This document shows, piece by piece, positions 1 through 31,825 of a stretch of 64,000 bases of DNA. Under the pieces are notes generated by a model. The model was not told where the DNA came from and made no database searches. It was given only the letters and a program-made list of their open reading frames with translations. Location of the stretch: NCBI RefSeq assembly GCF_056746865.1, contig NZ_CM163382.1. One strand, 5' to 3'. The first letter of the stretch is position 1; every line of letters starts with the position of its first letter. Made by a program: the position numbers and the translations under genes.

Positions 1-1846
1 CTCTATAGATCCTTTTAATATCGACCATATTGAAGTGATCTCCGGTGCGACGTCCCTGTATGGCGGCGGCAGTACCGGTGGCCTGATCAACATCGTGAGC
101 AAAAAAGGCCAGCCGGAAACCATGAAGGAGTTTGAGGCTGGCACCAAAAGTGGCTTTAGCAGCAGTAAAGATCACGATGAACGCATTGCCGGAGCTGTCT
201 CCGGCGGAAATGAGCATATCTCCGGACGTCTTTCCGTGGCATATCAGAAATTTGGCGGCTGGTTTGACGGTAACGGCGATGCCACCCTGCTTGATAACAC
301 CCAGACCGGCCTGCAGTACTCCGATCGGCTGGACATCATGGGAACTGGAACGTTGAACATCGATGAATCCCGGCAGCTTCAGTTGATCACACAGTACTAT
401 AAAAGCCAGGGCGACGACGATTACGGGCTTAATCTCGGGAAAGGCTTCTCTGCCATCAGAGGGACCAGCACGCCCTTCGTCAGTAACGGGCTGAATTCCG
501 ACCGTATTCCCGGCACTGAGCGGCATTTGATCAGCCTGCAGTACTCTGACAGCGCTTTCCTGGGACAGGAGCTGGTCGGTCAGGTTTACTACCGCGATGA
601 GTCGTTGCGATTCTACCCGTTCCCGACGGTAAATGCGAACAAACAGGTGACGGCTTTCTCTTCGTCACAGCAGGACACCGACCAGTACGGCATGAAACTG
701 ACTCTGAACAGCAAACCGATGGACGGCTGGCAAATCACCTGGGGGCTGGATGCTGATCATGAGCGCTTTACCTCCAACCAGATGTTCTTCGACCTGGCTC
801 AGGCAAGCGCTTCCGGAGGGCTGAACAACAAGAAGATTTACACCACCGGGCGCTATCCGTCGTATGACATCACCAACCTGGCGGTCTTCCTGCAATCAGG
901 CTATGACATCAATAATCTCTTTACCCTCAACGGTGGCGTACGCTATCAGTACACTGAAAACAAGATTGATGATTTCATCGGCTACGCGCAGCAACGGCAG
1001 ATTGCCGCCGGGAAGGCTATATCCGCCGACGCCATTCCTGGCGGCTCAGTCGATTACGACAACTTCCTGTTCAACGCTGGTCTGCTGATGCATATCACCG
1101 AACGCCAGCAGGCATGGCTCAACTTCTCCCAGGGCGTGGAGCTGCCGGACCCGGGTAAATACTATGGTCGCGGCATCTATGGTGCTGCAGTGAACGGCCA
1201 TCTTCCTCTAACAAAGAGTGTGAACGTCAGCGACAGCAAGCTGGAAGGCGTGAAAGTCGATTCTTATGAGCTGGGCTGGCGCTTTACTGGCAATAATCTG
1301 CGCACCCAAATCGCGGCCTACTATTCGATTTCTGATAAGAGCGTGGTGGCGAATAAAGATCTGACCATCAGTGTGGTGGACGACAAACGCCGTATTTACG
1401 GCGTGGAAGGTGCGGTGGACTACCTGATTCCTGATACTGACTGGAGTACCGGAGTGAACTTCAACGTGCTGAAAACTGAGTCGAAAGTGAACGGTACCTG
1501 GCAGAAATACGATGTGAAGACAGCAAGCCCATCAAAAGCGACAGCCTACATTGGCTGGGCACCGGACCCGTGGAGTCTGCGAGTGCAGAGCACCACCTCC
1601 TTTGACGTGAGCGACGCGCAGGGCTACAAGGTCGATGGCTATACCATCGTCGATTTGCTTGGCAGTTATCAGCTTCCGGTGGGTACACTCAGCTTCAGCA
1701 TTGAAAACCTCTTCGACCGTGACTACACCACTGTCTGGGGGCAGCGTGCGCCACTGTACTACAGCCCGGGTTACGGCCCTGCTTCACTGTACGGCTACAA
1801 AGGCAGGGGCCGCACCTTTGGTCTGAGTTACTCAGTATTATTCTGA
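1..1846 (+). CDS. iutA: TonB-dependent ferric aerobactin receptor, 5' end outside window
   Basis: Long ORF open from window start to stop at 1846; outer-membrane beta-barrel C-terminus ending in aromatic residue (GLSYSVLF); sequence recalled as IutA; sits next to sit operon as in aerobactin islands/ColV-type regions. Confidence 0.7.
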   Translation, partial: SIDPFNIDHIEVISGATSLYGGGSTGGLINIVSKKGQPETMKEFEAGTKSGFSSSKDHDERIAGAVSGGNEHISGRLSVAYQKFGGWFDGNGDATLLDNTQTGLQYSDRLDIMGTGTLNIDESRQLQLITQYYKSQGDDDYGLNLGKGFSAIRGTSTPFVSNGLNSDRIPGTERHLISLQYSDSAFLGQELVGQVYYRDESLRFYPFPTVNANKQVTAFSSSQQDTDQYGMKLTLNSKPMDGWQITWGLDADHERFTSNQMFFDLAQASASGGLNNKKIYTTGRYPSYDITNLAVFLQSGYDINNLFTLNGGVRYQYTENKIDDFIGYAQQRQIAAGKAISADAIPGGSVDYDNFLFNAGLLMHITERQQAWLNFSQGVELPDPGKYYGRGIYGAAVNGHLPLTKSVNVSDSKLEGVKVDSYELGWRFTGNNLRTQIAAYYSISDKSVVANKDLTISVVDDKRRIYGVEGAVDYLIPDTDWSTGVNFNVLKTESKVNGTWQKYDVKTASPSKATAYIGWAPDPWSLRVQSTTSFDVSDAQGYKVDGYTIVDLLGSYQLPVGTLSFSIENLFDRDYTTVWGQRAPLYYSPGYGPASLYGYKGRGRTFGLSYSVLF

Positions 1847-1910
1847 CAGGAATTCTTTGGAAACAAAGGTATGTTGATATAAGGGCCTTCCCTGATCATG
1901 GTGGGAAGGC

Positions 1911-3145
1911 TCAAAACGCCATATTCAGTTTCCCGTAGTGGAACATCACGCCCAGCTTAAAGCGTTCCCGATTGCGGTATCCCCTGGCTTTTATCCTCAG
2001 CAGCCTGAGCTTACTGTTAAGCGCCTCCGCGTTTCCGTTTGAGACACGGTGTCGCATGGCATTCAGGATCCCATACAGCCTTTTTCCTATCGTTTTCGTG
2101 GCGTTTTTCATCATAGTAATGTCACTGTTGGCCGCCAGAGCCAGCAATCTCTCCCACTCATTACGTCTTTCCTCACTTCATGGCCTGTTCCAGATATTCT
2201 TTGCCAGCTCTTTCAGCGCCCAGCACAGGCTTGTCAGCTTCATCTGTGCACGCAGCCATATCAGCTTTTCCTGCCTGGATTCGGTCATCCATTTATCGTT
2301 GTACTGCCACAGGAAGCGGGTCCCCTTTGCCTGACGCCGACTTTCAACAGGGAGGTGTGGATGTTCATCCTGACGGATTTTATCAACTACTTCACCAAGT
2401 TGCTTTGCTACATGGAAGCGGTCGAAGGCGATTTTCTCAACCGCACAGGGTAAGTGGATACGCGCTGCTCTTATACAGCCTGCATTCATGTCCATTGAGA
2501 GCGTTTTGATAGCCAGCAACTGCCCGTCAGTAAGCGTGCGAAGATAGCCGGCGAGGCTCTCTGTGCCACGATCGTCCGTTAAGGCCAGTGCACGACCATC
2601 GCGATCGGAGATCACAGTTATATAACAATGTCCTTTTTTAAAGGCGACCTCATCCACATTCATATGACGGGCGGATAATGGCTTTTTTATCCGGGCAAGA
2701 CCTCGCTTAACTGCCCGGGTCATAATGCCGTCAACCGCATTCCAGCTGAGCTTAAGTTGTTTCCTTACAGCATCAACAGTGCTGATTTTCAGCCATGAGA
2801 GAACGAGTCGAACAGCAGCGTATACCGCCTTCCGGGGCCAGCCCAGGGAACTAGCAACGTCTGGCAGCCATGCTCCGGGCACATAATGCGGGGCACATCG
2901 GCTTCGACAATAGTGGTGAACTGGCAGATATCAAGATGACGCCATTTACGATGACGGTGATCGTGAACAGAACAGGATTTACCGCAGGTCGGACAGGCTA
3001 ACCGGGCATTTTTAGCGATTCCAACTGTGACGGTAACAGAACCGGCGTTTTCATCGAGAGAAAGATATTTAACCTGCCATGGAGCGGTCAGGTTGATAAT
3101 ATGAGCGTAGAGGGACCTTTCGTCCATGGCGGTGACCTTTGGCAA
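1911..3145 (-). pseudogene. ISL3-family transposase, disrupted by two frameshifts
   Basis: Three consecutive minus-strand ORF pieces (2789-3145 zinc-finger N-term with CPTCG; 2178-2882 DDE core with NVDEVAFKKGH; 1911-2147 C-term with GYRNRERF) that together make one ISL3-like transposase. Confidence 0.5.
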
Positions 3146-3430
3146 TTAAAACACCATCATCATGCCTTCAGCCACCATAACAAGGGAAAACCCTGATATA
3201 CGGCCTTAAAAAGATATTCCGTCTCCGGAACGGACTGCTCACCACTGAATAACATTATGCCTGTTTTATGTATCTTTGACTGAAATTTATCGCATATCCT
3301 CATTTCATTGCCCGTATGAAAAGGTAAGCGAAAACCTACTGCCGTAGTAGCCATTGAGTAGTATTGGTAACATAGGTGCCAACATTTCAACTGATCTGCG
3401 CTAAGATCTTGGGTATTCTATGAAAAATGT

Positions 3431-3741
3431 GGTAGTGCTTCCAATCAGTAGAACATGTTCTTTTCAATGACGGAACCGATGACTTTTTCGTTGATTTTCA
3501 CGGAACGCGAGAAGCAGATTGTTTTACGTGCCAGCCGCTTGATGCGGGTGCGGAGGGGCAGGTTGTTAAGTTCAATAGGTTGCGTGAATATTTTACCGGT
3601 CAGGTATTTCTCCTTCGTCACTTCTCTGACGTTGCAGCCCCTGTCATTGCTGGTCACTATGCCGATATAGAACGAAGTCAACAGGGCTAACAGTTCCCGA
3701 CAGGTCTCATCATTCCGTGGCCCGAAAGAATAAGCCAACAC
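3431..3741 (-). pseudogene. IS1-family element right end with divergent InsB-like C-terminal fragment
   Basis: ORF 3445-3741 C-terminus parallels IS1 InsB (RLARKTICFSRSVKINEKVIGSVIE vs [26 protein letters not shown]); terminal sequence ggtagtgcttccaatcagtag at 3431 resembles the IS1 inverted repeat; 5' part absent. Confidence 0.45.
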
Positions 3742-4083
3742 ACCGCAGTTTTAGTGTTGTAAGCAGACCAGTGTTGTTGCGCCTTGCTGCCAACGAAATT
3801 TAACTGCTCATCAAGTTTCAAAGATAAGGGCAACATCAGCGTGAACGACTGGCGTAGATGTTATCCGCCGGGGCGAAAACATTTTTAATGTCCGTATGAC
3901 GGTATTGATGCCGATTTTCAGTGTTCATGGGTATCACGGACACCTGCGCCGTTATGTGCCATTTCAACGATCTGCTCCTTAACGCCGGGTTTCCTGACTT
4001 CACCAAGAGTAAGTGAGCTGGAAAACATGTTTTACATGAGCGACAACGGAAACGCTCATCTCGGGAACGTGTTCTTAACGGTT

Positions 4084-4170
4084 AGACTGGCCCCCCTGAA
4101 TCACCTGCAGTTGAAGGACAGTAACAGGTTAAGTGATAACAGATGTCTGGAAATATAGAGGTAAATCCAA
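4084..4170. mobile_element. Miniature IS2 remnant: IS2 left and right terminal repeats with almost all internal sequence deleted
   Basis: tagactggcccccctgaatcacc matches IS2 left end; gttaagtgataacagatgtctggaaatatagaggtaaatcca matches IS2 right end; only about 20 bp between them. Confidence 0.55.
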
Positions 4171-4435
4171 GGAAGTGCCACTTTTCATCCGTTGTTGACA
4201 ATACAGCAAAACTTGATGCTATTCGTACGCCCACAATGGAATGTGGATTCAAACTGAATATTCCGTTTGTTGATATGAGTGATTTGGGCAACGGTGGCAA
4301 CAAATAACTTTATACAGGAGCTGACGGTGTTTTCCTGATCATGCCGCCCATATTTTCTTCGGAGGTCGGGGACTTTCAATACCTTCCCCCGACACTCTAT
4401 GACTTCACAAGATTGTCTCCATGACTGCTATGTGC

Positions 4436-5314
4436 CTACAGATGTTGCTCTCTGGTTGTTGTACTAGTCGGGAGATCCTGTGGATCGACATTTTCCTTCG
4501 CGTGAGCATTGATGCTGGAAGCGGTAAACGTCAGGATGAATACAACCGTGAATAAGATAACAATCGTTGGTGCTGGTGCGCTGTCTATAAAAAAGGAGAG
4601 CCATACACCAGTCATTGAGACCATTACCGATATACCGAGCGCCAGCAGGAGCGCAATATGAAAGCGTTGCGTCAGGAGTACCGCAATGGCGCCAGGCGCA
4701 ATGAGCAGAGAAATGGAGAGAATGATACCTACCGCTTTCAGCGTCGCCACAATGGTCAGAGAGACCATGCACAGCAGCCCATAATGCAGCCATCTCGTAT
4801 GCAAACCGCTTACCTGCGCCTGTTGATAATCAAAGCTGAACAGCAAAAAATCCCGCCATTTTACGCTAATAACAAGTGTAACCAGCCCGGCAATAATCAC
4901 CGTCTGGATTATATCGCCGATGGTTACCCCGAGCATGTCGCCGAAAAGAATATGGTCAAGATGTACGTCGGGTTTGACTGCAATATACAAGATCAGACCT
5001 GCGGCAAACATGCCAGAAAAAACAATCCCCATCACTGTATCTTGCTTGATTCGGCTGTTGTCTTTCAGGTATCCCGTCGCCACCGCGCAGAATACTCCGG
5101 CGACGAATGCTCCTCCCGCCAGAGGAAAACCCAGTATCCACGCAAGCACGATACCAGGAAAAACCGCATGACTCATCGCGTCTCCCATCAGTGCCCAACC
5201 TTTCAGGACCAGAAAGACCGACAGCAGCGCACAGGGTATGGAAACTACCAGTGAAATCAGCAGTGCGTGACTCATAAAGGTGAACTGCAGTGGCTCCAGT
5301 AATAATGCCATCAT
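4436..5314 (-). CDS. sitD: Iron/manganese ABC transporter permease SitD
   Basis: 292-aa polytopic membrane protein; last gene of four-gene operon with overlapping stop/start codons. Confidence 0.85.
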   Translation of the reverse strand: MMALLLEPLQFTFMSHALLISLVVSIPCALLSVFLVLKGWALMGDAMSHAVFPGIVLAWILGFPLAGGAFVAGVFCAVATGYLKDNSRIKQDTVMGIVFSGMFAAGLILYIAVKPDVHLDHILFGDMLGVTIGDIIQTVIIAGLVTLVISVKWRDFLLFSFDYQQAQVSGLHTRWLHYGLLCMVSLTIVATLKAVGIILSISLLIAPGAIAVLLTQRFHIALLLALGISVMVSMTGVWLSFFIDSAPAPTIVILFTVVFILTFTASSINAHAKENVDPQDLPTSTTTREQHL

Positions 5315-6168
5315 GAGCGATCCTCCAGCACCTTATGCGCACGCTGACGATTTGCCAAAAGCCCATGGGTGGGTGCAAAGACAAATGCTAAAAGAAACAG
5401 CAGTGTCTGCGCCACCACGATGATTCCACCTGTCGCTCCGTCCAGAAAGTAACTGACCCACGCGCCGAGGAAACTGGTTACACTGCCAATAGTTACAGCA
5501 ATCACGAGCAGGCGGGGAAAACGATCGGTTAACAACCATGCTGTTGCGCCAGGGGTCACTACCAGACAGATCACCAGAAAAGCCCCAACCGTTTGCAATG
5601 CTGCAACGGTCGATACCGCCAGCAGTGTGAAGAAGAGGATTTTTAATCTTCCTGGATATAATCCAATAGCACGGGCGTGATTTTCGTCGAAAAAGGTCAC
5701 CATAAGATCTTTCCATTTGAAAAAGAGCACTATGACTGAGACAATGCCAATGATAGTGAGTTGCAGGATATCCGCCGGAGCGATTGCCAGAATATTGCCC
5801 AGGACGATGGTCTGAATATTTACGGATGTCGGGTTTAATGACACCATAAACAGCCCCAGGCCAAAAAAGGACGAGAAGATCAGGCCGATGATGGCATCTT
5901 CTTTTAAGCGAGTGCGTTGGTTAAGAAACAGCATGCTGCCCGCAGCCAGTCCACCGGAAAAGAAGGCCCCCAGAGAAAACGGAAGCCCCAGCATATATGC
6001 CCCCGCAACACCCGGGACGATAGAGTGCGACAGCGCATCGCCAATCAGCGACCAGCCTTTTAGCATCAGATAGCATGACAGGAAAGCGCAGAGACCGCCG
6101 ACCATCGCCGCGACCCACATCGCATTGAGCATATATTCATAGCTGAAGGGTTCCAGTAGCACGTTCAT
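5311..6168 (-). CDS. sitC: Iron/manganese ABC transporter permease SitC
   Basis: 285-aa hydrophobic permease; 4-bp overlap with sitD and sitB. Confidence 0.85.
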
Positions 6169-8140: not shown

Positions 8141-9287
8141 ATGAAGGGTAAAATTGTCTGCTGTGGAGCCTCTCAGATTTCCGGCATCATAGTGCCCAAT
8201 ACGGGATGCAAAAGCGCCCTCAGACTGGCGACTCCACAAATGAAATATACACCGGTTGGCGTTGATATCGCAAAGTATCTGATTCAGGTTCACTTCATCA
8301 ATGAGTACACGGGCGAAGTGGTGGACAAGCAGCTACGTAGCAAGGATTTTCTGACGTTCTTCAGCAACCGGGAACCCTGTCTGATAGGTATGGAGGCTTG
8401 TGGAGGCTCCCAACATTGGGCGAGGGAACTGGAAAAAACTGGGACACAAAGTTCGGCTGTTGCAAGCTCGCTTCGTTAAAGCATTCGTCATGGGCAACAA
8501 AAATGATGTGATGGATGCGCGTGCTATCTGGATGGCGGTACAGCAGCCCAGTAAAGATATCGCTGTTAAAACGGAAGAGAAGCAGTCAGTTCTGGTCCTG
8601 CACCGTTCGCGCAGACAACTGGTGAAGTTCAGAACCTCGCATATTAATACCCTTGGCACGCTCCTCGAGTTTGGTGAAATCCTCCACAAAGATTGGACAG
8701 CGATGGACAGAAAGCTACCGACAGCCCTAGAGCGAATGAAGACGAACCTGCCGCCGTATCTCATCACTGTGCTTGAATACCAGTACAACAGACTGAGTGA
8801 GCTGGGCATGCAGATAGATGGCCTTGATAAACAGATTAACAGCGTGGCACGGCAGAGCGAAAACTGTAAGCGCCTAATGGAAATCCCCGGTGTGGGGCCG
8901 TTAATCGCTACGGCGGTGGTCGCCACCATGGGCGAGGCCTCAGCATTTAAATCCGGACGTGAGTTTGACGCTTATGTCTGTCTGGTGCCGAAGCAGACGG
9001 GGTCCGCTGGGAAGGTTCGCATGCTGGGGATAAGCAAACGTGGGGATACCTACCACCGGACATTATTTATCCATGGGGCAAGGGCGGCAGCATTGCTTAC
9101 CAAAGAACCCGGCCCATGGATCACGGAGCTGAAAAAACGGCAGCCGACAGGTGTAATGCCGATCAGTTTAGGAGCAGTTGACCGATCCAGGGTCTGTTTA
9201 AGAATCCTGAAACGCTCACTCGTTTCCGGATTTTTGTGCACAGAAAAACCCCAGCTAGGCTGGGGGCCGGAAAGCTTTCAGCTTTGA
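8141..9287 (+). pseudogene. IS110-family transposase, frameshifted
   Basis: ORFs 8141-8479 and 8400-9287 overlap in different frames; N-terminal GVDIAK/MEACG and C-terminal IPGVGP/GISKRG motifs. Confidence 0.6.
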
Positions 9288-9325
9288 GCCAGTTATTAAA
9301 ACCCCTTTTGATTTGTTAAAACACC

Positions 9326-9616
9326 TTGCGGTCTGGCAACTGCAAGTGTCAAACAAGAAATCAAAAGGGGGTCCCAATGGGGAACGAAAAGAGCTTAGCG
9401 CATACCCGATGGAACTGTAAATATCACATAGTTTTTGCGCCAAAATACCGAAGAAAAGTGTTCTACAGAGAGAAGCGTAAAGCAACAGGCAGTATTTTGA
9501 GAAAGCTGTGTGAGTGGAAAAGTGTACGGATTCTTGAAGCTGAGTGCTGTGCAGATCATATCCATATGCTTGTGGAGATCCCGCCCAAAATGAGCGTATC
9601 CGGCTTTATGGGATAG
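9326..9616 (+). pseudogene. IS200-family TnpA, 3'-truncated
   Basis: MGNEKSLAHTRWNCKYHIVFAPKYRR...HIHMLVEIPPKMSVSGFMG matches IS200 TnpA; left-end hairpin cccttttgatttgtt/aacaagaaatcaaaaggggg upstream; ORF cut short at 9616. Confidence 0.65.
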
Positions 9617-10347
9617 ACGGCATTAATCGCTTCCGGGAAGCCTTTCAGGCCGTCCACGAAGGCGATAAGGATATCGTTCAGGCCGCGATTTTTCAGTTCC
9701 GTCAGTACATTCAGCCAGAACTTTGCACCTTCATTTTCGGCCAGCCACATATCCAGCAGCTCTTTCTGACCGTCGGTATTGATGCCCAGCGCGAGGAACA
9801 CCGCTTTGTTAATGACACTCCCGCTGTGACGAACCTTAACCACAATACAGTCAAGATAAACAATGGGATACAGTGCATCCAACGGTCGGTTTTGCCATTC
9901 AGAGACCTGTTCTTTAACCGCATCGGTCACTTTGGATATCAGCGTGGGCGAGACATCGGCGTCGTACATTTCTTTGAAGGCTGAGGTAATTTCGCGGGTA
10001 GTCATCCCTCTGGCATACAGCGCCAGGATCTGGTTGTCCATGCCGGTAATGCGGGTCTGATTTTTCTTCACCAGTTGTGGTTCGAAGGAACCATCACGAT
10101 CAGGTGGAGTACGTAATTCCATCGGCCCGTCGGTAGTGGTGACGGTTTTCGTGGAATAGCCATTACGGAAGTTGGTTCCCGATTTGGTCTGATTTTTTTC
10201 ATGTCCCAGATGGTGAGTCAGTTCAGCGTTGAGAGCTGCCTCAACACTTATTTTCTTGAGCAGGCGATCGAACTGACTGAGATCTTCAGGGGTTTTGAGA
10301 TTTTTGGCCAGTTCGTTAGCCAGAGCCTGCAATTGTGTGTCGTCCAT
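9556..10347 (-). pseudogene. IS256-family transposase, C-terminally truncated
   Basis: 263-aa ORF with IS256-like N-terminus (LNAELTHHLGHEKNQ, VYLDCIVVKVR); abuts the truncated IS200 piece. Confidence 0.6.
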
Positions 10348-11267
10348 AATTTAGCTTTCATTTGATGTTGAATTGAACAGATCAAAATCAGGCAATTACA
10401 TAAATCTATGTACAGGCTCAATGCCGGCGCTGGTATTGTAGAAATCAATCCTGCCCCTGATGTCGGAGATACTCTCGTTAACCTTCCTGATTGTATCCTC
10501 TGCTCAGTCAATGGGTTGCCAATGGGGGCACCCTTTCCTGACTGATTCGTCATTTCATTCTTATTGTATGTTACTGGCATTACACCAGTGCTGGCATACT
10601 TTCCTGCGTGTCTGCACCGGTTTGACAAAATTCAACAGGGATAAAATAGTGCAGGAAACTGAAGCATTACTTGCAGAGCCGGGAGACATCCGGCGTTTTA
10701 TTCAACAGGCAGTGGATCACTGGCCGCATTTTCTGATTGTCCACTTCACACACAATTCGACAGAAGGAAACATCAACGGACAACAGATTCATGCATTCTG
10801 AACTTCCTTTTATGAACGTATTACTGAACGTAATCACACTGACAGTCCATCCTCGCCGGTGGTATTACGCTGGTTGCGTGAACAACATGAAGGAACAACA
10901 ATACCTGTTGCTGCTCAGCCATGTGGTGGCATGCAGCGGCACTTTAAGCAGCACAGGGCACTTTGAACTGCTCCGGGAATCCTGGAGACTAAACTCCCTG
11001 AGAAAGAGGTAAACAGGATGAGTATGATTCACAATTGGGGTAATTTGTTCCATTGCCTCAAATGCTGGCTGTACGCCACAGACTCTGCGTGTCTGGGTTA
11101 GCCAGTATGAGCGGGATACAGGGGCGCTTCACACATAACATTCCTTCTAATTTGCATAATTAATTACACTGATAGTCACATTCAATAACTATCATAAGCT
11201 ATCATCTGGCTGACTGTTATTTCGCAACAGTTATTGAGTAAATCTTTAACCTGTTAACAGAGGGTTT

Positions 11268-11792
11268 ATGAAACGTAAACTTATTGCCTTTGTGATTCTG
11301 GCTACATCATCCTGTGGATATGCAGCCACCAAAGATGTAACAATGAATCTTGTTGATAGTGACGGAAAAGAGCGAAATATTGGTAAAATAACCATCCAGA
11401 AGACACCCTACGGGCTGCTGTTCACCCCTGATCTTCACTCCTTACCCGCCGGCATTCATGGTTTTCATGTACATGAAAACGCAAGTTGTGCTCCTGCCCT
11501 GAAAGATGGAAAAACTGTCGCTGCTTTATCTGCAGGTGGTCACTTTGACCCGGAAAAAACAGGGAAGCATCTCGGTCCATGGTCTCCTGATGGCCACCTA
11601 GGTGATCTCCCTGCGCTTTATGTCACTCATGACGGAAAAGCAACCTACCCGGTGCTTGCGCCAAGACTATCTGAATTAAAGGAGCTCGATGGCCGTTCGC
11701 TAATGCTCCACGCAGGAGGTGATAATCATGATGACCATCCTGAACCTCTAGGTGGCGGTGGTGCAAGAATTGCCTGTGGTATCATCCCATAA
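11268..11792 (+). CDS. sodC: Periplasmic Cu/Zn superoxide dismutase, acquired paralogue
   Basis: 174 aa with signal peptide, copper-site histidines (HGFHVHE, GGHFDPE) and C-terminal [12 protein letters not shown]; diverged from chromosomal SodC as recalled. Confidence 0.8.
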
Positions 11793-11799
11793 TCAATCA

Positions 11800-11822
11800 G
11801 GTAAGGGATATCCTCCCTTACC
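11800..11822. terminator. Hairpin between convergent genes, possible bidirectional terminator
   Basis: ggtaagggatatcctcccttacc inverted repeat directly after the sodC stop. Confidence 0.3.
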
Positions 11823-11920
11823 CTTAATCTTCCCTGGCGGCATGTGCATATCTTTCAGTTACTGTGAGATACCTGTATTACGGTGTCTTTTTAGCTCACA
11901 GAAATATCAGACAGCCCGTT

Positions 11921-12145
11921 TCAGTGTTTTATTACCTTAATCTTTTTACGGCATTCTTCAGCTCTTGCGCATGCTATTTTTTCACCTGTTTCATAACATT
12001 GCTGGCAGCCTAATCCAAATTTCATCGCCATATCATAACCTTCCCGAAAACCTCGGAACCACGCGTTACGAAGGTATTCATCATATTCCCCGTAGTCAAT
12101 AATAACCATTTTATTTTCATGGGATTTTCCGGTATTCTCACTCAT
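11921..12145 (-). CDS. Small cysteine-containing hypothetical protein
   Basis: ORF track gives 119 aa; internal start MSENTGK is preceded by a GAGG ribosome-binding site; convergent with sodC. Confidence 0.3.
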   Translation of the reverse strand: MSENTGKSHENKMVIIDYGEYDEYLRNAWFRGFREGYDMAMKFGLGCQQCYETGEKIACARAEECRKKIKVIKH

Positions 12146-12959
12146 TTTCGATACCTCAATGCTTACAACAGAAAAGTATACTTTTACGAAGTTCGCCTTT
12201 GCAGGACTATATAAAGTTATCACTGGATGCAAGAGCCGGAAATCATGTATATCAGGATCAACTTTGTAATTCAATAACATATTATCCAGTGAAAAAGTAA
12301 GTATATTTAAGCTGGGGAAGGAGAAGGGGGACTTAATTTGATATTTTCATCAATAATATTATTTTACCTCCTCCATTATTCATTCAGGCCTGGTTCCGGG
12401 CGTAATTCCGATTTCTCTGTTGAAGCGATGCATTTATATTTAAATATTCACCTGTCATTGAATTTTATTTGAAATAGGAGAAAATCTCCTCCTGTACTAC
12501 AGATAACCCGGAATGTTCCTCGAAAGAAAATTCTGGCGCAGAATTCACGCCCGGTTCTGTTCAACATCATGCAGGATAACGATACCGAAACGTTAAACTC
12601 TGGCAATTCTCGTGTTATACACAGGCAGGAGTGATTACTACGGTAAGAATTGCTGAAAAGGGGAGAACACTGAAGGCCTTATTCGCGAAGAATAAAGGAG
12701 ACATTTCATGTAAATTATTATCAGAGATAACCTTCTCCAGGCGCTTTTGTTCGCTTCCTGAATTGCTACCTGATACATATTTACGGGATGCCAGCCTGGT
12801 GACTATAACTCCGAAAAGACCGATTATTGTATTGCGTGCATCCGGCATGTTTACAATGTACGCTGGTATCTAACGGAGTCTGACACAGATGCACGCAGGT
12901 GTATATTTTAACGTAATTATCCGGAAGGAACAGTATATTTTAATGCGGGAGTTGCATGA

Positions 12960-13777
<818 letters not shown>

Positions 13778-14116
13778 TAATTACACTGTGGGTTGACGCC
13801 GGAAGAATCAGAGAACAGATACCGTTCTTACTGTAAAACGTGGCTAATATTAATTGAGCACTGCAGTGTTCAGAGCACAAAGAAGAAAAAAGATGTGTGC
13901 GAATGCCTGTAATGTGTTAAAAGAATGTTCCGCGTTTCCGGTACGCTTTTCGTAACTAACAATGCAGGGTGACGTAACGCTGGTTGTGCCGGAAACGCGT
14001 CCCTCCCCCTATCTTTCCTGTTTGGATTTGCCCCTATATTTCTGGATTATCCGACAAAACCGGCGTGAAGTATTACTCTCGTCGCCCAGCACCATAAGGA
14101 TAACGCCCATAAAATC

Positions 14117-14482
14117 ATGAAACTTTTCTTCCAGATTGGATACAATCAGGCCGTATCCCGTATTACAGGCTTATCACGTGTGACAGTCAGTCTCTGGGTG
14201 TGTTCAGGAACATTCCCTGAAATGTCAACCCGGCCTCCAGAGCGAGGACTTCTGGCCCCATGGAGGGAGTGGTTAAAAGAGCAACGAGAAAGTGGTAACT
14301 TCGGCGCGTGGCTGCAAGGATGGCAGCTGATGCTGCGGCTATATGTGAGGCAATCGGCAGTCGCTGGAATAATGGGGGTTGTCGAAAGTCATGTAAATAG
14401 ACTAAAAATGCTGAAAGGCCAGATGTATGGTCGAGCCGGATTTGAACTACTCAGACAGAGGGTCATGAGTCCACTGGCATGA
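14117..14482 (+). CDS. Hypothetical protein with possible AlpA-like helix-turn-helix
   Basis: 121-aa ORF containing ITGLSRVTVSLW...FPE; weak resemblance only. Confidence 0.2.
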   Translation: MKLFFQIGYNQAVSRITGLSRVTVSLWVCSGTFPEMSTRPPERGLLAPWREWLKEQRESGNFGAWLQGWQLMLRLYVRQSAVAGIMGVVESHVNRLKMLKGQMYGRAGFELLRQRVMSPLA

Positions 14483-14690
14483 AAATCTCCATCCAGGTTG
14501 CGTAAGAGCCACTTTTCATCCGTCGTCGATATCTGGGATAGCCATAGTGAAATAAAAAGCTGTCTGAATTAAATTATTTTGCACATATATTTTAATCCTG
14601 CACTGAATTAAGAATGGGTAATCAGTGACTGCTTGGACGGTCACTTTTAAGAGAAGGCATTAACAGAGAATGGTAAACAGGCTCAATATA

Positions 14691-15143
14691 TTATGTTGTT
14701 GGCACTACAGATGAATGATGGGATGATATTTTCCAATCCTTTCCATCCCACTCATAAGCGAAACTATAGCGTGCTGAAACTTGTTTTTTATCTTCAAAAG
14801 TAAACGTGTAATTCCCTGTATCAAGAGCCATATTGCATCCAATGCGAATAGTTCTGAAGTTTATTTCTCCAACAGGTTTTTTTTTCAAAAAATGCTCAAA
14901 ATAGTCAACTCTTTCTGCATCTGTAATCCTAATTTTTTTTGATACTGTGGGCAGTAAGATCGCATCACTTAAATAGTTATCAGCAACCTTCTTGGCATCA
15001 CCTGTTTTTAATGATTCATTCCAGCGATCGAATAACCTTTCAATGTCTTTACTATCTACCCGAATACACTTAACATTATCTACGTCACTTGCCCACGACG
15101 CTCCAGAAAACAGACACAGAATTAAAATATTTATTTTTTTCAT
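14691..15143 (-). CDS. Secreted hypothetical protein, possibly NTF2/SnoaL-like fold
   Basis: 150 aa with clear signal peptide (MKKINILILCLFSGASWA); AT-rich codon usage; fold guess from size and composition only. Confidence 0.45.
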   Translation of the reverse strand: MKKINILILCLFSGASWASDVDNVKCIRVDSKDIERLFDRWNESLKTGDAKKVADNYLSDAILLPTVSKKIRITDAERVDYFEHFLKKKPVGEINFRTIRIGCNMALDTGNYTFTFEDKKQVSARYSFAYEWDGKDWKISSHHSSVVPTT

Positions 15144-15317
15144 AACTCCTCCTGATCAGCCTGAAACTTTTTTAAAGTTTAATCATATTAATACAGTGCA
15201 ACTATTTGATAGTAAAAACGATGTTCTCTATTTTGTTAATAGATACTTCCTATTGTGTATATATTATGAGATTATTAAGAATAATACTCTCTGGGTCGTA
15301 GAGACAGGGTATAAGTC

Positions 15318-15760
15318 ACAGGCTGGTGTGGTTCGGATGTTCTTGCCCCCTCAATATCAGACTGCTATTGTATCTTAAGTTAACGTTATCCGCTGACGTC
15401 GATATTCCCGTGGTGAGAGATAACCTAACGCACTATGCGGATGGTTTTCATTGTAATGCTCGAACGCCTCTGCAAGGTTATGCAATGCCGTTATTACATT
15501 CAGTTTCGGCATGAACGCGATGTAGTCTTCATTCACGTTTTCACGAACCTTTCTGCCATTCTATTGCTCTGAGGGCTACTGACTGCCGTCGTGCAGGGCT
15601 CCAGATTCAACTCTCTGGCGAATTGCCGTGTTTCATGAGCCGTATAAGCCGAACCGTTATCCGTCCGCCACTGGATTGCTCGTTCCGGTCCTTTATCGCC
15701 AAAGCGTTTTTCTATCGCTCCTAACATCACATCCTGCACTGTCGGCTTTATCGTAACCTC
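15318..15760 (-). pseudogene. IS2-like (IS3 family) orfB C-terminal fragment with right inverted repeat
   Basis: [15 protein letters not shown]...[19 protein letters not shown]...[26 protein letters not shown] parallels IS2 OrfB; in-frame stop; terminal repeat ttaagatacaatagcagtctgatattgagggggcaag is IS2-IRR-like. Confidence 0.5.
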
Positions 15761-15789
15761 CCGTACTGGTCACGGGCAGACTGTTCATC

Positions 15790-16503
15790 ATGTTAAACCC
15801 AGCCGCTGTCAGATCATGCACCGGCCGGATGGCGGGCTGACCTGCCCCGCCGCGCTGCTGCCCGCCAATCCATTTCTTACCTTCCTTCCCGGTGGCCTGA
15901 CGTCCGGCCTCGTCCCCTTTCACCGCATCACCGTCACCGCTGTTCACCACCTTCTTGTACTCTTCCAGCATCGCTGGCCTGCGTCCATTTGCTGCGATCA
16001 GAAAAGTCCATCATCCGTTTTGCCATGTTCTGGCAGTTCAGTTACGCCTTGTCGAAAGCCACATTCGCCTGCAGCACACCGTTGGTGATCATGTCGTACA
16101 GGCCGGGGTTGGCACGCTGTATCACCATCGCCGGCAGACTGGCAGCGGCGCCGGTCGCCCCCTAAATCACATCCCCCATCAGATTTTTAAAGCCGTCGGT
16201 CAATCCGTTAAGATGATTACCCACCGTGGTCTTCAGGTCAAAGTTGCCGCACATCAGATCGCTGCTCCAGCCCAGGTCCATACCCAGCTTCTGCATGTTG
16301 CTGCGCGTGGCCAACTGTGAGATCACCGAGCCGCCACCCAGCGTATAGAACAGTTTGTCGGATACGGCGCCATCCACGGATTTCCCGTAACCGAACGTGC
16401 TGTCATTCAGTTTCGGCAGGGAAAGAAGATCAGCCATCGCCGGAATACTGCAGTACAGCATCACACTCAGTGCCACCATACCTGTTTTCATCTTCATCAT
16501 CAT
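15790..16503 (-). pseudogene. TraH-like conjugative transfer protein, disrupted
   Basis: ORF 16162-16503 has signal peptide and TraH-like N-terminus; reading continues in other frames to about 15790 with stops. Confidence 0.35.
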
Positions 16504-16509
16504 GGTTCC

Positions 16510-18365
16510 TTAAAAATTCGTACTGCCAAGGAATCGCTGCCCGCGCTTTTCGAAGCAGCTGTAAGGCTGCCACAGTGCAAAGGCTGCATTACCGTTCTCC
16601 GCCGCCTGGTGTTCACCATCCGGGAAAACGGCACAGGAACGCGACACTGACGGCGTCAGTCGCTGCCATTTGTGATTGCGGGTGCCGGTGTTTTCCTCCA
16701 CCGCCTCCGGGGGCCAGTAGCCGTCACGTTTCACGCCCTTAACCTCCCTGTAGACATGCGACTCCCCCATCCGCGTGATAATGTCGGCCACCCGCTGAGC
16801 CCCCACCGCCGCGGCCCGGTCATCATCGCTCTGCATCACAAAACCACTCCGGTGATAAACGCTCCCCCACATGTTTTTATCGGCCTAGCTGCCAATCTCG
16901 CGTTTGCCGGGAACCTGTGCCTCTGGATACAGGGATTCAGGTAATCCCGTTCGCTAGACGATGCTGTCCAGGGTACTGAGGAAATAGGCCATGGCCGGTG
17001 TCACCGGTGAATCACAGCTGAATCCGGGTACCATCCCGCCGATAAGCTGTGTGGCCGGATGACCCAGCGCATCTGCATATTTGAAACGAATTGCTGAACG
17101 GCGCTTCCCCTGTATTTTCATATCCGCCGGATTTCCCCCGCCGGCACTCAGCCCGGACAGGCCGTCAGTGATGGCATTCTCCGGGCCACCTGCGGTCCGG
17201 CTGACCAGCGACATCTCTTTCCAGGGATTACCACCCGGTGCCGTATAGGTGGAAATAACCACTTCCGGGATGAAATGTGTCACCTTCACGGAAATTCTGA
17301 CCGTACAGCCAGACGCGCTGCAGTAAAGCCAGTAACAAATCCCGCTGACACGCCAGCTGATATAGTCCGGTGCCGCAGTACTGGCGATAATGCTGGCGGT
17401 GTTCAGTGATACAGACGCCAGGGGCAGTGATGCCACACTCAGTAACAGCACGCCGGTACGCAGACGACATTTCAGGGACATCATGGCTGCACTCCTCCCT
17501 CAGCACGGATTTTCCCGGCCATCACCACATCCATGGTGCCGTAAACCACCTCACTGTCATCAAACACCACGGCAGGGTATTTCTTCACGCCCAGCGACTA
17601 GGCATGTGCCACATCGCGGTAATGACCGGCCAGTTCCGCCTGCATCGTCTGCCATTCGGGAGACTTCATACGTACCCTGACCACCGATTCAGCCTCACCC
17701 GCATCAGCAGGCAACAGGCCCCAAAAGCGGCTCTGAAGCTGCTCAGGCGCATCCAGCAGAACCACCCTGACACCATCAGGAGGATTAACGGGAAGATGCT
17801 GAGAATCGGTATAAATTGTTGTGCCGGCAGACGCTGCCAGCGGCAGGAAAAACAGGGAACAGAAAATCCGGTACATCGTACACCTCAGTCAGATATTATC
17901 TGACTGACAGCGTGCGAAGAAAGCGCTCATTTATCAGCAATAAATTAAAAACGGGATTAAAAAATTACGGTGGGATCCGGGGAAGTGTATCTGCCAAGCA
18001 TAACAGACAGTCTGTGATTATACCCGGCCTTTCACAAAGCCGGGGAACTGATTCATACCAAGTGGTGATTTTCAACAATAAGTATAATGAGGTTGTCCCG
18101 GCACCGGTGGCAGTGGTTCGAGATAGACGTCATCAACAAAAACACAGGGGAATTTTTCAACTGCACATCCAGCACGCTCAGACATTACCTTCAGACTGAT
18201 ACCATGTTTCTCAGCATCAATAAAGAGGACATCTGCCCCTGTTTCATCCCGGAGATTTGTCGCATGATGCATGATCCGGTGTACTGAAGGACATGTTTTG
18301 TAACCAAAAACACATATACGCATGTTGCACCTCCTGATCACTGGTTGACGCCGATAATAAAACAA
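16510..18365 (-). pseudogene. Degraded conjugation-module remnants (TraU-like, signal-peptide protein, glutaredoxin-like protein)
   Basis: Co-directional short ORFs 16510-16872, 16954-17484 (CxxxxC motif ICYWLYCS), 17598-17876, 18072-18365 (CPSV glutaredoxin-like), separated by in-frame stops. Confidence 0.3.
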
Positions 18366-18809: not shown

Positions 18810-20897
18810 TCAGAACTGATAGTTCAGCGACATCCAGTAATTTCTCTCAGGTATCACATAACCCGTTGTCGATGCCCCCGTCTGGAAGTAATCACCCGCA
18901 TAAAGCGTACCACTGCCGGCACGATACAGACTTACGTCACTGTAATCCTTGTTAAGCACATTATTCACCGCTGCATTCAGCATCAGTGCATCCGTCACTT
19001 TCCACGACATGCCCGCATCCAGTACCGTCCAGGCTTTCAGATATTCACCTTTCTCATCATACACTTTCTTCTGTACAGCTGAGAGTGACGAATAATTCTG
19101 GGTGAAACGTGGCGTTTTCCCGCGGTAACGGGCACCCAGCCATGATGTCACCTCTTCAGTAATCTGCCAGTTCAGTTTCGCATTCACCATATGCTCAGGG
19201 GTGTAACTCAGTGGTGCACCTTTATTATCCCCATCCCGTTGTTCACTCTGCGTCCAGGTATAATTCAGAGACAGAGTCACATCCTCTGACAACAGAGGCA
19301 GTGTGCCGGCAAATTCCACGCCCTGAGTCCTAGCCTTTCCGCTGTTTGTGTAGCTGCGGGTATTATCATCAATGGAATAAGATACGATCTTGTTGGAGAA
19401 TTCTGTCATAAAGCCCGTGATATTGGCGTTCAGACCGGCATGATTATCGTAATACACGCCCGCTTCATAACTGACACTCTCCTCCGGCTTCAGGTCCGGG
19501 TTACCGAGAAGATTCGTACGCCCCTGACCGGACACACCGCTGATCCCCTTATGTAACTGCCCCATGCTGGGCGCCTTATATCCCGTGGTCACCCCACCTT
19601 TCAGCGTCCACGCATCAGTCACATCCCAGACCATATATGCCCGGGGACTGAAGTGTCCTCCGAACACCTCATAGCGTTCATAGCGGCTACCCGCAGTCAG
19701 TGCAAATGCATCCGTGATATACCACTCATCCTCAACAAATGCCGACCAGCTTTTCTGACGGAAGGTTTCACCAGTACTGGCGAGAACAACCCCGTCTTTC
19801 ATGGAGGAGTTCTGATACTCACCACCGACGGTAACCTTGTGTGATTCCCCCAGAGGTGCAAACAGTAATGAGCTCAGGATAAGATTCGACTCCTTAAGCT
19901 CCCTCGGCTGGCCGGCAAGCCCCCATTTATCACGCTGCAGTACGCTACGTACAAGCTGACGGCCTTTATTTTCCGTCTCATTCCAGTTCAGAGATGACTT
20001 CCAGGCTCCGAAGGTGAATGTATGATCATAGCCTGCTGAAATTTTATTACGCTCATAGCGCAGGGTGCGATCATAACCGCCCGTCAGACTGCCCAGCTGG
20101 CCATCTCGGTTATCATAACGCTGCCGGGCGATATCCATATCAATCCAGAGTACATCCTTGTCCGTCGCTTTCCAGTCAAGACGACCACCTGCATTATAAT
20201 TCTGTGATTCCGTGGGATAAGGGATACGCGTAGCTGAGGTGTCGCTCAGTGATGTGACCGATGAGCCCTGACGCTGCTGTGTGCTGCCACGTACCTGAAG
20301 GCTGAGTGAATCATCCACAAGGGGACCGCTGCTCCAGAAATTAAACTGGCTGCTGTTCCCCCATTTGTTACTTTCCTGCAGGTTCAGCCCGGCATTAACC
20401 GAAGAGCGCCATTTGTCTGCATTCTTTTTGGTGATGATATTCACCACGCCCCCCATGGCATCAGAGCCGTACAGAGTGGACATGGGGCCCCTGATAATCT
20501 CAATACGTTCGATGGCGGCCAGAGGTGGCATAAAACCCGTATTCATGGCAGCATAACCGTTTGGGGTTACGTCACTGCTCCCGCCCTGACGGACACCATC
20601 GATCAGTATCAGCGTATAACTGGCAGGCATTCCGCGGATGCTGATTTCGAGCCCACCTGTTTTACCCGTACCGCTTTCAACATCCACCCCCTCTACGGAT
20701 CTCAGTGCCTCCCCCAGATCATGATACTGGCTGGATCGCAAATCCTCCTGGCTGATCACTGAAACACTCGCAGCTGCACTGGTTAATTTTTTTTCATAGC
20801 CAGACGCCGTGACTACCATCACATCTTCCGCAGCCATACTGCTGACTGAAAACCCGAGACAAGGGATGGCTACTGAAGCCAGAGTGGTTACTCGCAT
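18810..20897 (-). CDS. iha: TonB-dependent siderophore receptor/adhesin, Iha-like (IrgA homologue)
   Basis: 695 aa with signal peptide, TonB-box-like EDVMVVTAS, plug plus beta-barrel, C-terminal aromatic residue; size and sequence recalled as Iha. Confidence 0.6.
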   Translation of the reverse strand: MRVTTLASVAIPCLGFSVSSMAAEDVMVVTASGYEKKLTSAAASVSVISQEDLRSSQYHDLGEALRSVEGVDVESGTGKTGGLEISIRGMPASYTLILIDGVRQGGSSDVTPNGYAAMNTGFMPPLAAIERIEIIRGPMSTLYGSDAMGGVVNIITKKNADKWRSSVNAGLNLQESNKWGNSSQFNFWSSGPLVDDSLSLQVRGSTQQRQGSSVTSLSDTSATRIPYPTESQNYNAGGRLDWKATDKDVLWIDMDIARQRYDNRDGQLGSLTGGYDRTLRYERNKISAGYDHTFTFGAWKSSLNWNETENKGRQLVRSVLQRDKWGLAGQPRELKESNLILSSLLFAPLGESHKVTVGGEYQNSSMKDGVVLASTGETFRQKSWSAFVEDEWYITDAFALTAGSRYERYEVFGGHFSPRAYMVWDVTDAWTLKGGVTTGYKAPSMGQLHKGISGVSGQGRTNLLGNPDLKPEESVSYEAGVYYDNHAGLNANITGFMTEFSNKIVSYSIDDNTRSYTNSGKARTQGVEFAGTLPLLSEDVTLSLNYTWTQSEQRDGDNKGAPLSYTPEHMVNAKLNWQITEEVTSWLGARYRGKTPRFTQNYSSLSAVQKKVYDEKGEYLKAWTVLDAGMSWKVTDALMLNAAVNNVLNKDYSDVSLYRAGSGTLYAGDYFQTGASTTGYVIPERNYWMSLNYQF

Positions 20898-31079: not shown

Positions 31080-31825
31080 TGAGTGCATTTCGTACAGTTA
31101 ACCGCAAAAGGAGGGGGTACTCCATTCCATGAACTGGAAGCCCAGATACGATGCATAGAGTCACCTGATATTAAAAAGAACGAGGATCTTGAGGACGAGA
31201 ACCGACGTCCAAAACAGATGCTTGCCGACCTTAGCCTAGAGAACCGGCATTGAAAGACATTATCGAAAAAAGCTTTAAAACCAGCCTGTAAGCGTGAGCT
31301 TGTTACTCATCAGATAACGACATTTGGACTCAGTGTCCATCAGGCCTGCCGGAGTCTGAACCAGAGCAGAACGGTTTCCCATTACCGTCCGGATACCACG
31401 TGGTACGACCCCGTTATTGTGGTGGTGCAGGCAGTGGACGAGCGATATCCTCGATACGGTTTTTCAAAACTTTTTCAGGTTCTGAGGCAGCAGGTTCGCG
31501 GCAAATCGCAGTTATCCGGTCATGCTGCGCATAGATAATGGTTCGGAATTTATCTCTCTAACGCTGGCTGAATGGGCTGATATACACGCAGTAAAACGGG
31601 AGTTTATCCAGCCGGGTAAGCTGACGTAGAACGCTTTTATTGGGCGTTTTAACAGGACACACCGTACAGAAATACTCGATTTTTATCTGTTCAGAACGCT
31701 GAATGAAGTTCTAGAAATTACGGAGAAATGGTTATCAGAATATAGCTATGAACGCACACATGAATCACTGAACAATAAGACGCTGGAAGAATATCGACGA
31801 CACCATTATTTGACCAAGATATAAA
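31080..31825 (+). pseudogene. IS3-family transposase remnant, heavily degenerate
   Basis: OrfA C-terminus (ENRRPKQMLADLSLEN) and orfB C-terminus (ERFNRTHRTEILD...ERTHESLNNKTLEEY) recognisable between many stops. Confidence 0.4.

Follow-up and report, generated by a model that had tools for sequence, protein, structure and literature searches.

A 64,000-nt stretch of Escherichia coli chromosomal island DNA, called the window here, was analyzed around an AT-rich segment that holds one gene for a 150-aa protein on the minus strand (positions 14691-15143). A preliminary description of this DNA had reported two open reading frames (ORFs) in the segment, encoding 150 and 121 amino acids, and both were found where it had placed them. 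The 150-aa ORF is real, intact and conserved, although its immediate neighbors are all pseudogenes, and it probably encodes a stand-alone, Sec-exported carbonic anhydrase (CA) of the iota class (iota-CA), of the COG4875/LCIP63/BteCAiota type. The features of this gene and of the unit that contains it are given below (coordinates, strand, description and basis).

14527..15337, no strand: AT-rich acquired unit of 811 bp, comprising the candidate iota-CA gene and its flanks only (composition and border homologies)
14691..15143, minus: intact coding sequence of the putative iota-CA, 150 aa (RefSeq WP_029400372.1, "SgcJ/EcaC family oxidoreductase")
15148..15153, minus: Shine-Dalgarno sequence AGGAGG, 4 nt 5' of the ATG of the 150-aa gene (read from the sequence)
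15090..15143, minus: codons of the predicted Sec signal peptide MKKINILILCLFSGASWA, cleavage after Ala18 (hydrophobicity profile and translation)
14835..15068, minus: stretch bounded by the codons of invariant C26 (15066-15068) and C103 (14835-14837) (alignment)
14901..14948, minus: stretch with the codons of T66 (14946-14948) and Y81 (14901-14903), counterparts of the catalytic Thr and Tyr (spacing and alignment)
14709..14720, minus: codons of the HHSS motif H142-H143-S144-S145, in which H143 and S145 are counterparts of the catalytic His and Ser (translation)

Family, proposed catalytic residues and probable export of the 150-aa protein

Matches to the Pfam families CaMKII_AD (5e-13), SnoaL_3 and DUF4440 were obtained for WP_029400372.1, which has an NTF2-like/CaMKII-AD-like fold and was modeled by AlphaFold2 with a predicted local distance difference test score (pLDDT) of 84.7. 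With NCBIfam TIGR02246, "SgcJ/EcaC family oxidoreductase", it scored 42.8 bits against a cut-off of 33.95 bits; this is a broad "subfamily" hidden Markov model (HMM), a match to which does not establish function. More than 320 homologs of about 150 aa, 60-71% identical to the window protein, occur in Enterobacter, Buttiauxella, Pantoea, Serratia, Yersinia, Providencia, Pseudomonas and Acinetobacter, and 46 columns are invariant in alignment A1, which comprises 42 of these homologs and to which the invariant and near-invariant residues named below refer. The sole close solved structure, matched at E 1e-30 by the sequence alone and at 1e-40 by the profile, is PDB 3H51 of Xanthomonas campestris, a structural-genomics entry for a "putative CaMKII association domain" that serves as structural template in the iota-CA literature. 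It differs from the window protein by an Asp in place of C103 and by insertions of 1 and 4 residues, and its activity is not confirmed (PMC8132391).

Full-length similarity to a characterized iota-CA was found with BteCAiota of Burkholderia territorii, the sole bacterial member of the COG4875 group with measured kinetics. A review gives this enzyme as WP_063553346.1 (PMC8425729), which we confirmed by exact look-up; the recovered protein fits the published one in its length of 162 aa, its cleavage between ASA and QN at 25/26 and its HHHSS motif (PMC7191908). Alignment with WP_029400372.1 gave 54% identity over 123 residues with zero gaps (E 3e-49). BteCAiota has a kcat of 3.0e5 s-1, is inhibited by acetazolamide, forms a dimer, is 42% identical to 3H51 and likewise carries the name "SgcJ/EcaC family oxidoreductase" (PMC7191908). 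The two proteins are alike in being single NTF2/CaMKII-AD-like domains of ~150-160 aa with a signal peptide and the same RefSeq name, and in having the Thr/Tyr/His/Ser set, the C-terminal (H)HHSS motif and both cysteines. The window protein differs by SHHSS instead of HHHSS, by a signal peptide of 18 rather than 25 residues and by lacking the acidic, Cys-containing C-terminal tail of BteCAiota; moreover, its gene lies on a low-GC fragment flanked by insertion sequences (ISs) in an E. coli island.

Structure comparison gave 45% identity to 3H51 and 24-25% identity to the iota-CA crystal structures, which represent COG4337 (Anabaena all2909, PDB 7C5V; Bigelowiella Bn86287, PDB 7C5X), a separate COG and superfamily branch. 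For these solved COG4337 proteins metal-free catalysis was demonstrated, and they share the His-His-Ser-Ser motif (PMC8132391); outside COG4337 there is no more than a partial indication of such catalysis, in the diatom enzyme. The profile of the WP_029400372.1 family matched 7C5X, "iota-carbonic anhydrase", with E 1.7e-11 via the C-terminal ...YTF.Y...HHSS region. This HMMER/profile match of the COG4337 domain was partial only (positions 96-146 of 150 of the profile, in each 7C5X repeat), and all2909 was not matched by the family profile at E<=10. The 150-aa protein is related to the COG4337 branch and is not a member of it. Precomputed matches of PF27546, "MICAH", on the homologs are flagged "weak"; a literature search for "MICAH" with "NTF2-like" gave no match, and that MICAH stands for metal-independent carbonic anhydrase is only a guess.

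The C-terminal motif of the window protein reads S141-H142-H143-S144-S145, in which H143 is conserved at >=90% while H142, S144 and S145 do not vary at all; T66 and Y81 are invariant as well. In all2909, Thr106, Tyr124, His197 and Ser199 are required for activity (PMC8132391), and in the diatom COG4875-type enzyme the same four residues are T62/Y77/H139/S141 (PMC8395977). T66/Y81/H143/S145 of the window protein are the counterparts of the residues that inactivate all2909 on mutation, have the spacing of 15/62/2 seen in domain 1 of the diatom iota-CA (T62/Y77/H139/S141) and align with T73/Y88/H150/S152 of BteCAiota. The motif and the roles of these residues in iota-CAs have been described (PMC8132391, PMC8425729, PMC8395977), and the cavity set of Thr, Tyr, His and Ser was identified here from the letters of the ORF only.

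Features typical of a Sec signal peptide were recognized at the N-terminus by inspection of the sequence and of its hydrophobicity profile: MKK precedes a 12-residue hydrophobic core, followed by SWA before the predicted cut, with Ser as the next residue. Across the homologs the first 18-25 residues are variable and the Ala at -1 (Ala18) is invariant. Bacterial iota-CA members carry signal peptides (PMC8132391), including one predicted by SignalP for BteCAiota (PMC7191908). We consider export of the 150-aa protein very probable. A lipoprotein was considered and rejected, as there is no lipobox and Cys11 stands in the context LILC without a small residue at -1. C26 and C103 are invariant, are found in the Ralstonia and Burkholderia proteins too, and may form a disulfide in the periplasm; since the signal peptide and these two cysteines fit an oxidizing compartment, a periplasmic location is proposed. 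In compartment and reaction the protein would resemble the periplasmic alpha-class CAs of Helicobacter pylori, Vibrio cholerae and Neisseria (PMC7191908, PMC8425729), which differ by an unrelated fold, by zinc held by three histidines and by the lack of homology to the window protein.

On account of the 54% identity to BteCAiota, the HHSS motif, the Thr/Tyr/His/Ser set, the signal peptide and the cysteines, the protein was assigned to the COG4875 iota-CA family, and this assignment is strong. We infer catalytic activity, metal need, expression and physiological role, and also the dimer and the disulfide. After cleavage at Ala18, a mature protein of ~132 residues would fold in the periplasm as a cone-shaped NTF2-like alpha+beta barrel, probably as a dimer (as 3H51 and BteCAiota) and probably stabilized by the C26-C103 disulfide. 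CO2 would enter the inner cavity, where T66, Y81, H143 and S145 would activate water and shuttle the proton, releasing HCO3- and H+. In E. coli this would add a periplasmic interconversion of CO2 and bicarbonate that may serve inorganic-carbon trapping and/or envelope pH buffering.

The preliminary description had spoken of an orphan segment and of a secreted protein without an assignable function. The secreted character of the protein is supported by the Sec features and the invariant Ala18. "Orphan" does not suit a protein with more than 320 homologs and a solved family structure, nor does the lack of an assignable function hold for a member of the COG4875 iota-CA group, 54% identical to BteCAiota, that keeps all proposed catalytic residues.

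An AT-rich unit between insertion sequence remnants

The flanks of the 811-bp unit consist of transposase debris, one piece of which accounts for most of the 121-aa ORF.

13000..14153 (start approximate), plus: degraded, frameshifted IS3-family element with OrfA-like helix-turn-helix (HTH) and HTH_21 fragments (RefSeq pseudogene)
14154..14526, plus: ISL3-family 3'-terminal remnant, pseudogene (DNA identity, NCBIfam, RefSeq)
14117..14482, plus: 121-aa ORF, a chance frame over the junction of the IS3 and ISL3 remnants (ORF list, NCBIfam, DNA identity)
15338..15769, minus: IS2-like (IS3 family) transposase remnant, C-terminal integrase core (NCBIfam, Pfam, DNA identity)

The GC content of the unit is 0.348, equal in the coding sequence and in both flanks, compared with 0.494 for the whole window (1-64000), 0.507 for the ISL3 remnant (14154-14526) and 0.484 for the IS2-like remnant (measured over 15375-15760). 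On the left the unit begins where 90-92% DNA identity to annotated ISL3 transposase genes of E. coli stops, copies of which occur in thousands of E. coli genomes, and on the right it gives way to IS2-like homology at ~15338. Left of the ISL3 remnant, 13372-13713 matched NCBIfam IS3 (2e-14) and Pfam HTH_21, and 13700-14153 was 99.8% identical to an annotated IS3-family transposase. On the right, the IS2-like remnant lies upstream of the candidate iota-CA gene on the same strand; it matched NCBIfam IS2 TnpB (4e-24) and Pfam rve, is a RefSeq pseudogene ("integrase core domain"), and its DNA is 70-73% identical to IS2 and 89-90% identical to another IS3-family element. In RefSeq all neighbors of the 150-aa gene within 2 kb are pseudogenes, namely remnants of ISs and of integrative and conjugative elements (ICEs). 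The region 13900-15400 matched 47 complete E. coli chromosomes at 99.9% identity.

The 121-aa ORF could be read as a second functional protein, which would give the segment two cargo genes, and it is indeed unbroken, starts with ATG and has weak HTH-like Pfam matches (E ~0.05). This reading, which was that of the preliminary description, is very improbable. Residues 26-117 correspond to positions 275-368 of 370 of the NCBIfam ISL3 model, that is, to its last 95 positions, with 36 bits where the cut-off is 180, as expected of a 3' remnant and not of a full-length ISL3 transposase. ISL3 copies match this DNA at 90-92% identity, the start codon lies inside the IS3 remnant, the GC content is host-like rather than AT-rich, and RefSeq annotates a partial transposase pseudogene there ("frameshifted, incomplete"). 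The 121-aa ORF is transposase debris and no independent gene.

The preliminary description is thereby modified in several respects. "Markedly AT-rich DNA" is right for the surroundings of the 150-aa gene and wrong for the 121-aa ORF (GC ~0.49-0.51). "Foreign cargo" describes well a discrete 35%-GC unit that lies between IS remnants in ~1% of complete E. coli genomes, and the 811-bp unit is foreign and horizontally acquired; the 121-aa ORF, which begins in the IS3 remnant and runs into the 3' end of the ISL3 transposase, is no part of that cargo. As for the flanks, the IS2-like fragment was correctly recognized on the right (15338-15769). On the left, a remnant of a group II intron was rejected, as Rfam found none in 10000-17000 (E<=0.1) and the DNA there is identified as IS3 and ISL3 debris. 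The sole group II intron signal of the window lies ~30 kb away, at 44886-44972, and a 413-aa ORF (43359-44600, plus strand) directly 5' of it is possibly the intron reverse transcriptase. This and the remaining Rfam matches are listed here; those to the small RNAs STnc490 and isrN exceeded the gathering score.

44886-44972, plus: group II intron domains V/VI (Rfam, 64 bits)
9246-9367, plus: STnc490 (Rfam, 129 bits)
31277-31419, minus: isrN (Rfam, 138 bits)
13062-13144, plus: isrC-like, sub-threshold, within the IS3 remnant (Rfam, 30.8 against 39 bits)

Further out, the unit is embedded in an island with sodC (11268-11792, plus strand) and iha (18810-20897, minus strand). Three envelope-located accessory functions, the candidate iota-CA, the periplasmic Cu,Zn SodC and the siderophore receptor/adhesin Iha, are thus found within 10 kb with IS debris between them. 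Adjoining sodC is a 119-aa ORF (11921-12280, minus strand; GC 0.37-0.40) that has no Pfam or NCBIfam match and at which RefSeq has a shorter hypothetical protein, WP_001470144.1. The ICE genes TIGR03756 and TIGR03757 (window ~16500-17900, minus strand) have internal stops or frameshifts in matching RefSeq genomes; they are ICE remains, and part of the island may have been delivered by an ICE. In strain EC6563 the DNA left of sodC has dptFGH, for DNA phosphorothioation-dependent restriction (1-5720 of the extracted locus), and since the left part of the window differs from EC6563 before ~10964, the island is mosaic between strains.

Distribution and mobility of the unit and its relatives

A comparison with 5,426 complete E. 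coli genomes gave the 811-bp unit in 51 of them (>=99% identity), in every case on the chromosome and mostly in isolates from poultry and humans, and the identical protein WP_029400372.1 is present on at least 999 public contigs. In E. coli SMS-3-5 (NC_010498.1, 3207606-3207991) only the 5' half of the unit remains and the gene is reduced to a 74-aa "hypothetical protein", WP_012311683.1, which indicates that the unit can decay; other partial members also occur in the WP_029400372.1 cluster. A search for the donor gave as nearest non-E. coli proteins ones only ~70% identical, from unrelated contexts, and a literature search found no paper naming WP_029400372. In the reading proposed here, the gene arrived as 811 bp of low-GC DNA that is now stranded between the IS remnants of the iha/sodC island.

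No conserved neighbors were found in Buttiauxella, on Enterobacter plasmids, in Ralstonia, on two metagenomic contigs or on qnrB plasmids. An operon partner that might hint at function was therefore rejected, the neighbors differing in every context compared, and the lack of shared neighbors in six native contexts is as expected of a self-sufficient enzyme.

One relative has likewise been mobilized in Enterobacterales. WP_003833285.1, a Citrobacter-derived protein, has the same length (150 aa) and architecture as the window protein and is 67% identical to it. It represents another allele and lineage, is plasmid-borne and is linked to qnrB, whereas the window allele is chromosomal, linked to iha and sodC, and much more AT-rich. 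Its gene and qnrB are convergent and 42 bp apart; the gene lies in ISCR1/IS26 multiresistance regions, for instance on plasmids NZ_MH477636.1 and NZ_LR890351.1 (6956-7408 of each extracted locus). A homolog of the window protein is present on 494 PLSDB plasmids, 137 of them from Klebsiella, and proteins encoded on Mb-scale contigs of Citrobacter freundii and C. portucalensis fall into the 90% cluster of WP_003833285.1. WP_003833285.1 may have been co-mobilized from the Citrobacter source locus of qnrB.

Alternative readings and significance

Several points weigh against an exported iota-CA. NTF2-like folds serve many unrelated activities, and CO2 hydration in vitro is not necessarily the physiological role. 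E. coli often silences AT-rich DNA that it has acquired, and a consensus scan of the minus strand detected no sigma-70-like promoter and no intrinsic terminator for the gene; shuffled sequence folds as well as its 3' flank (z -0.28). Within its clade the window allele is an outlier, with 67-76% identity in the mature region compared with a mean of 78% among the others, and shows nine conservative departures at positions conserved at >=90%, none of them catalytic or Cys. Assays so far cover only BteCAiota (COG4875 type, by one laboratory), diatom LCIP63 and two COG4337 proteins. The metal dependence of COG4875 is disputed, with Mn in the diatom enzyme, Zn proposed for BteCAiota and none for COG4337 (PMC8132391, PMC8425729, PMC8395977), and the catalytic mechanism of this branch is likewise unsettled (PMC8132391, PMC8425729).

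An enzyme or small-molecule binder of NTF2-like fold with another substrate (an isomerase, dehydratase, cyclase or "oxidoreductase"), for which the CA activity in relatives would be a side activity, is unlikely. It would agree with the above-cut-off TIGR02246 score, with the SnoaL_3 and DUF4440 matches and with the hydrophobic ligands that NTF2-like cavities usually bind. Structural neighbors of other NTF2 chemistry are, however, only 4-18% identical to the window protein, SgcJ structures 13-14% and CaMKII hub structures 12-16%, as against the 45% of 3H51 and the 24-25% of the iota-CA crystal structures. The CaMKII hub HMM PF08332 was matched, but by a stand-alone 150-aa secreted domain without a kinase, whereas a true hub is the C-terminal domain of a CaMKII kinase and builds 12-16-mer holoenzymes. 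No biosynthetic or catabolic cluster lies beside the gene in any context compared, nor do enediyne or other secondary-metabolite biosynthetic genes such as would go with the SgcJ/EcaC type, and the SgcJ/EcaC-annotated family is itself without known function according to a review (PMC8425729). Both the HHSS motif and the set of Thr, Tyr, His and Ser residues are peculiar to iota-CAs.

We regard it as similarly improbable that E. coli carries the gene as a silent passenger, caught between ISs, neither expressed nor selected, and decaying. Such a fate is suggested by the surrounding IS and ICE pseudogenes, by the negative promoter and terminator scan, by a GC content of 35% in a host of ~50% GC, by presence in only ~1% of complete E. 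coli genomes, by truncated copies such as the 74-aa SMS-3-5 remnant and by the plasmid sister gene, which evidently hitch-hikes with qnrB. Against it stand the intact ORF with its strong Shine-Dalgarno sequence and all catalytic residues, the >=99% identity of the unit in 51 complete genomes of varied hosts and the exact protein on at least 999 contigs. The near-identity of the copies means that the acquisition may be too recent for selection to be judged either way.

The assignment of the gene as a Sec-exported iota-CA could be extended to a role in the host. It is conceivable, though we consider it doubtful, that a metal-independent or metal-sparing periplasmic CA acts as a fitness factor of extraintestinal and avian E. 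coli under zinc and manganese withholding, functionally allied with Iha and SodC. If so, CO2/bicarbonate interconversion and envelope pH buffering would be kept when the host withholds zinc and manganese, and the sister allele would owe its spread with qnrB on plasmids to more than passive carriage.

The well-known carbonic anhydrases of E. coli are cytoplasmic enzymes of the beta and gamma classes. An exported iota-class enzyme would add periplasmic CO2 hydration in ~1% of complete genomes, mostly of poultry and human isolates, and the 67%-identical sister gene travels with qnrB on hundreds of multiresistance plasmids. Close relatives, namely WP_003833285.1 and homologs from Enterobacter, Buttiauxella, Serratia, Kosakonia, Ralstonia and Xanthomonas, have already been reviewed as iota-CAs (PMC8425729); what is gained here is a corrected label and the anatomy of the segment. 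The RefSeq name "SgcJ/EcaC family oxidoreductase" masks the likely function in thousands of clinical assemblies, and the exploration of CA inhibitors as antibacterials could be affected by an overlooked CA, possibly a metal-independent one, that some strains possess.

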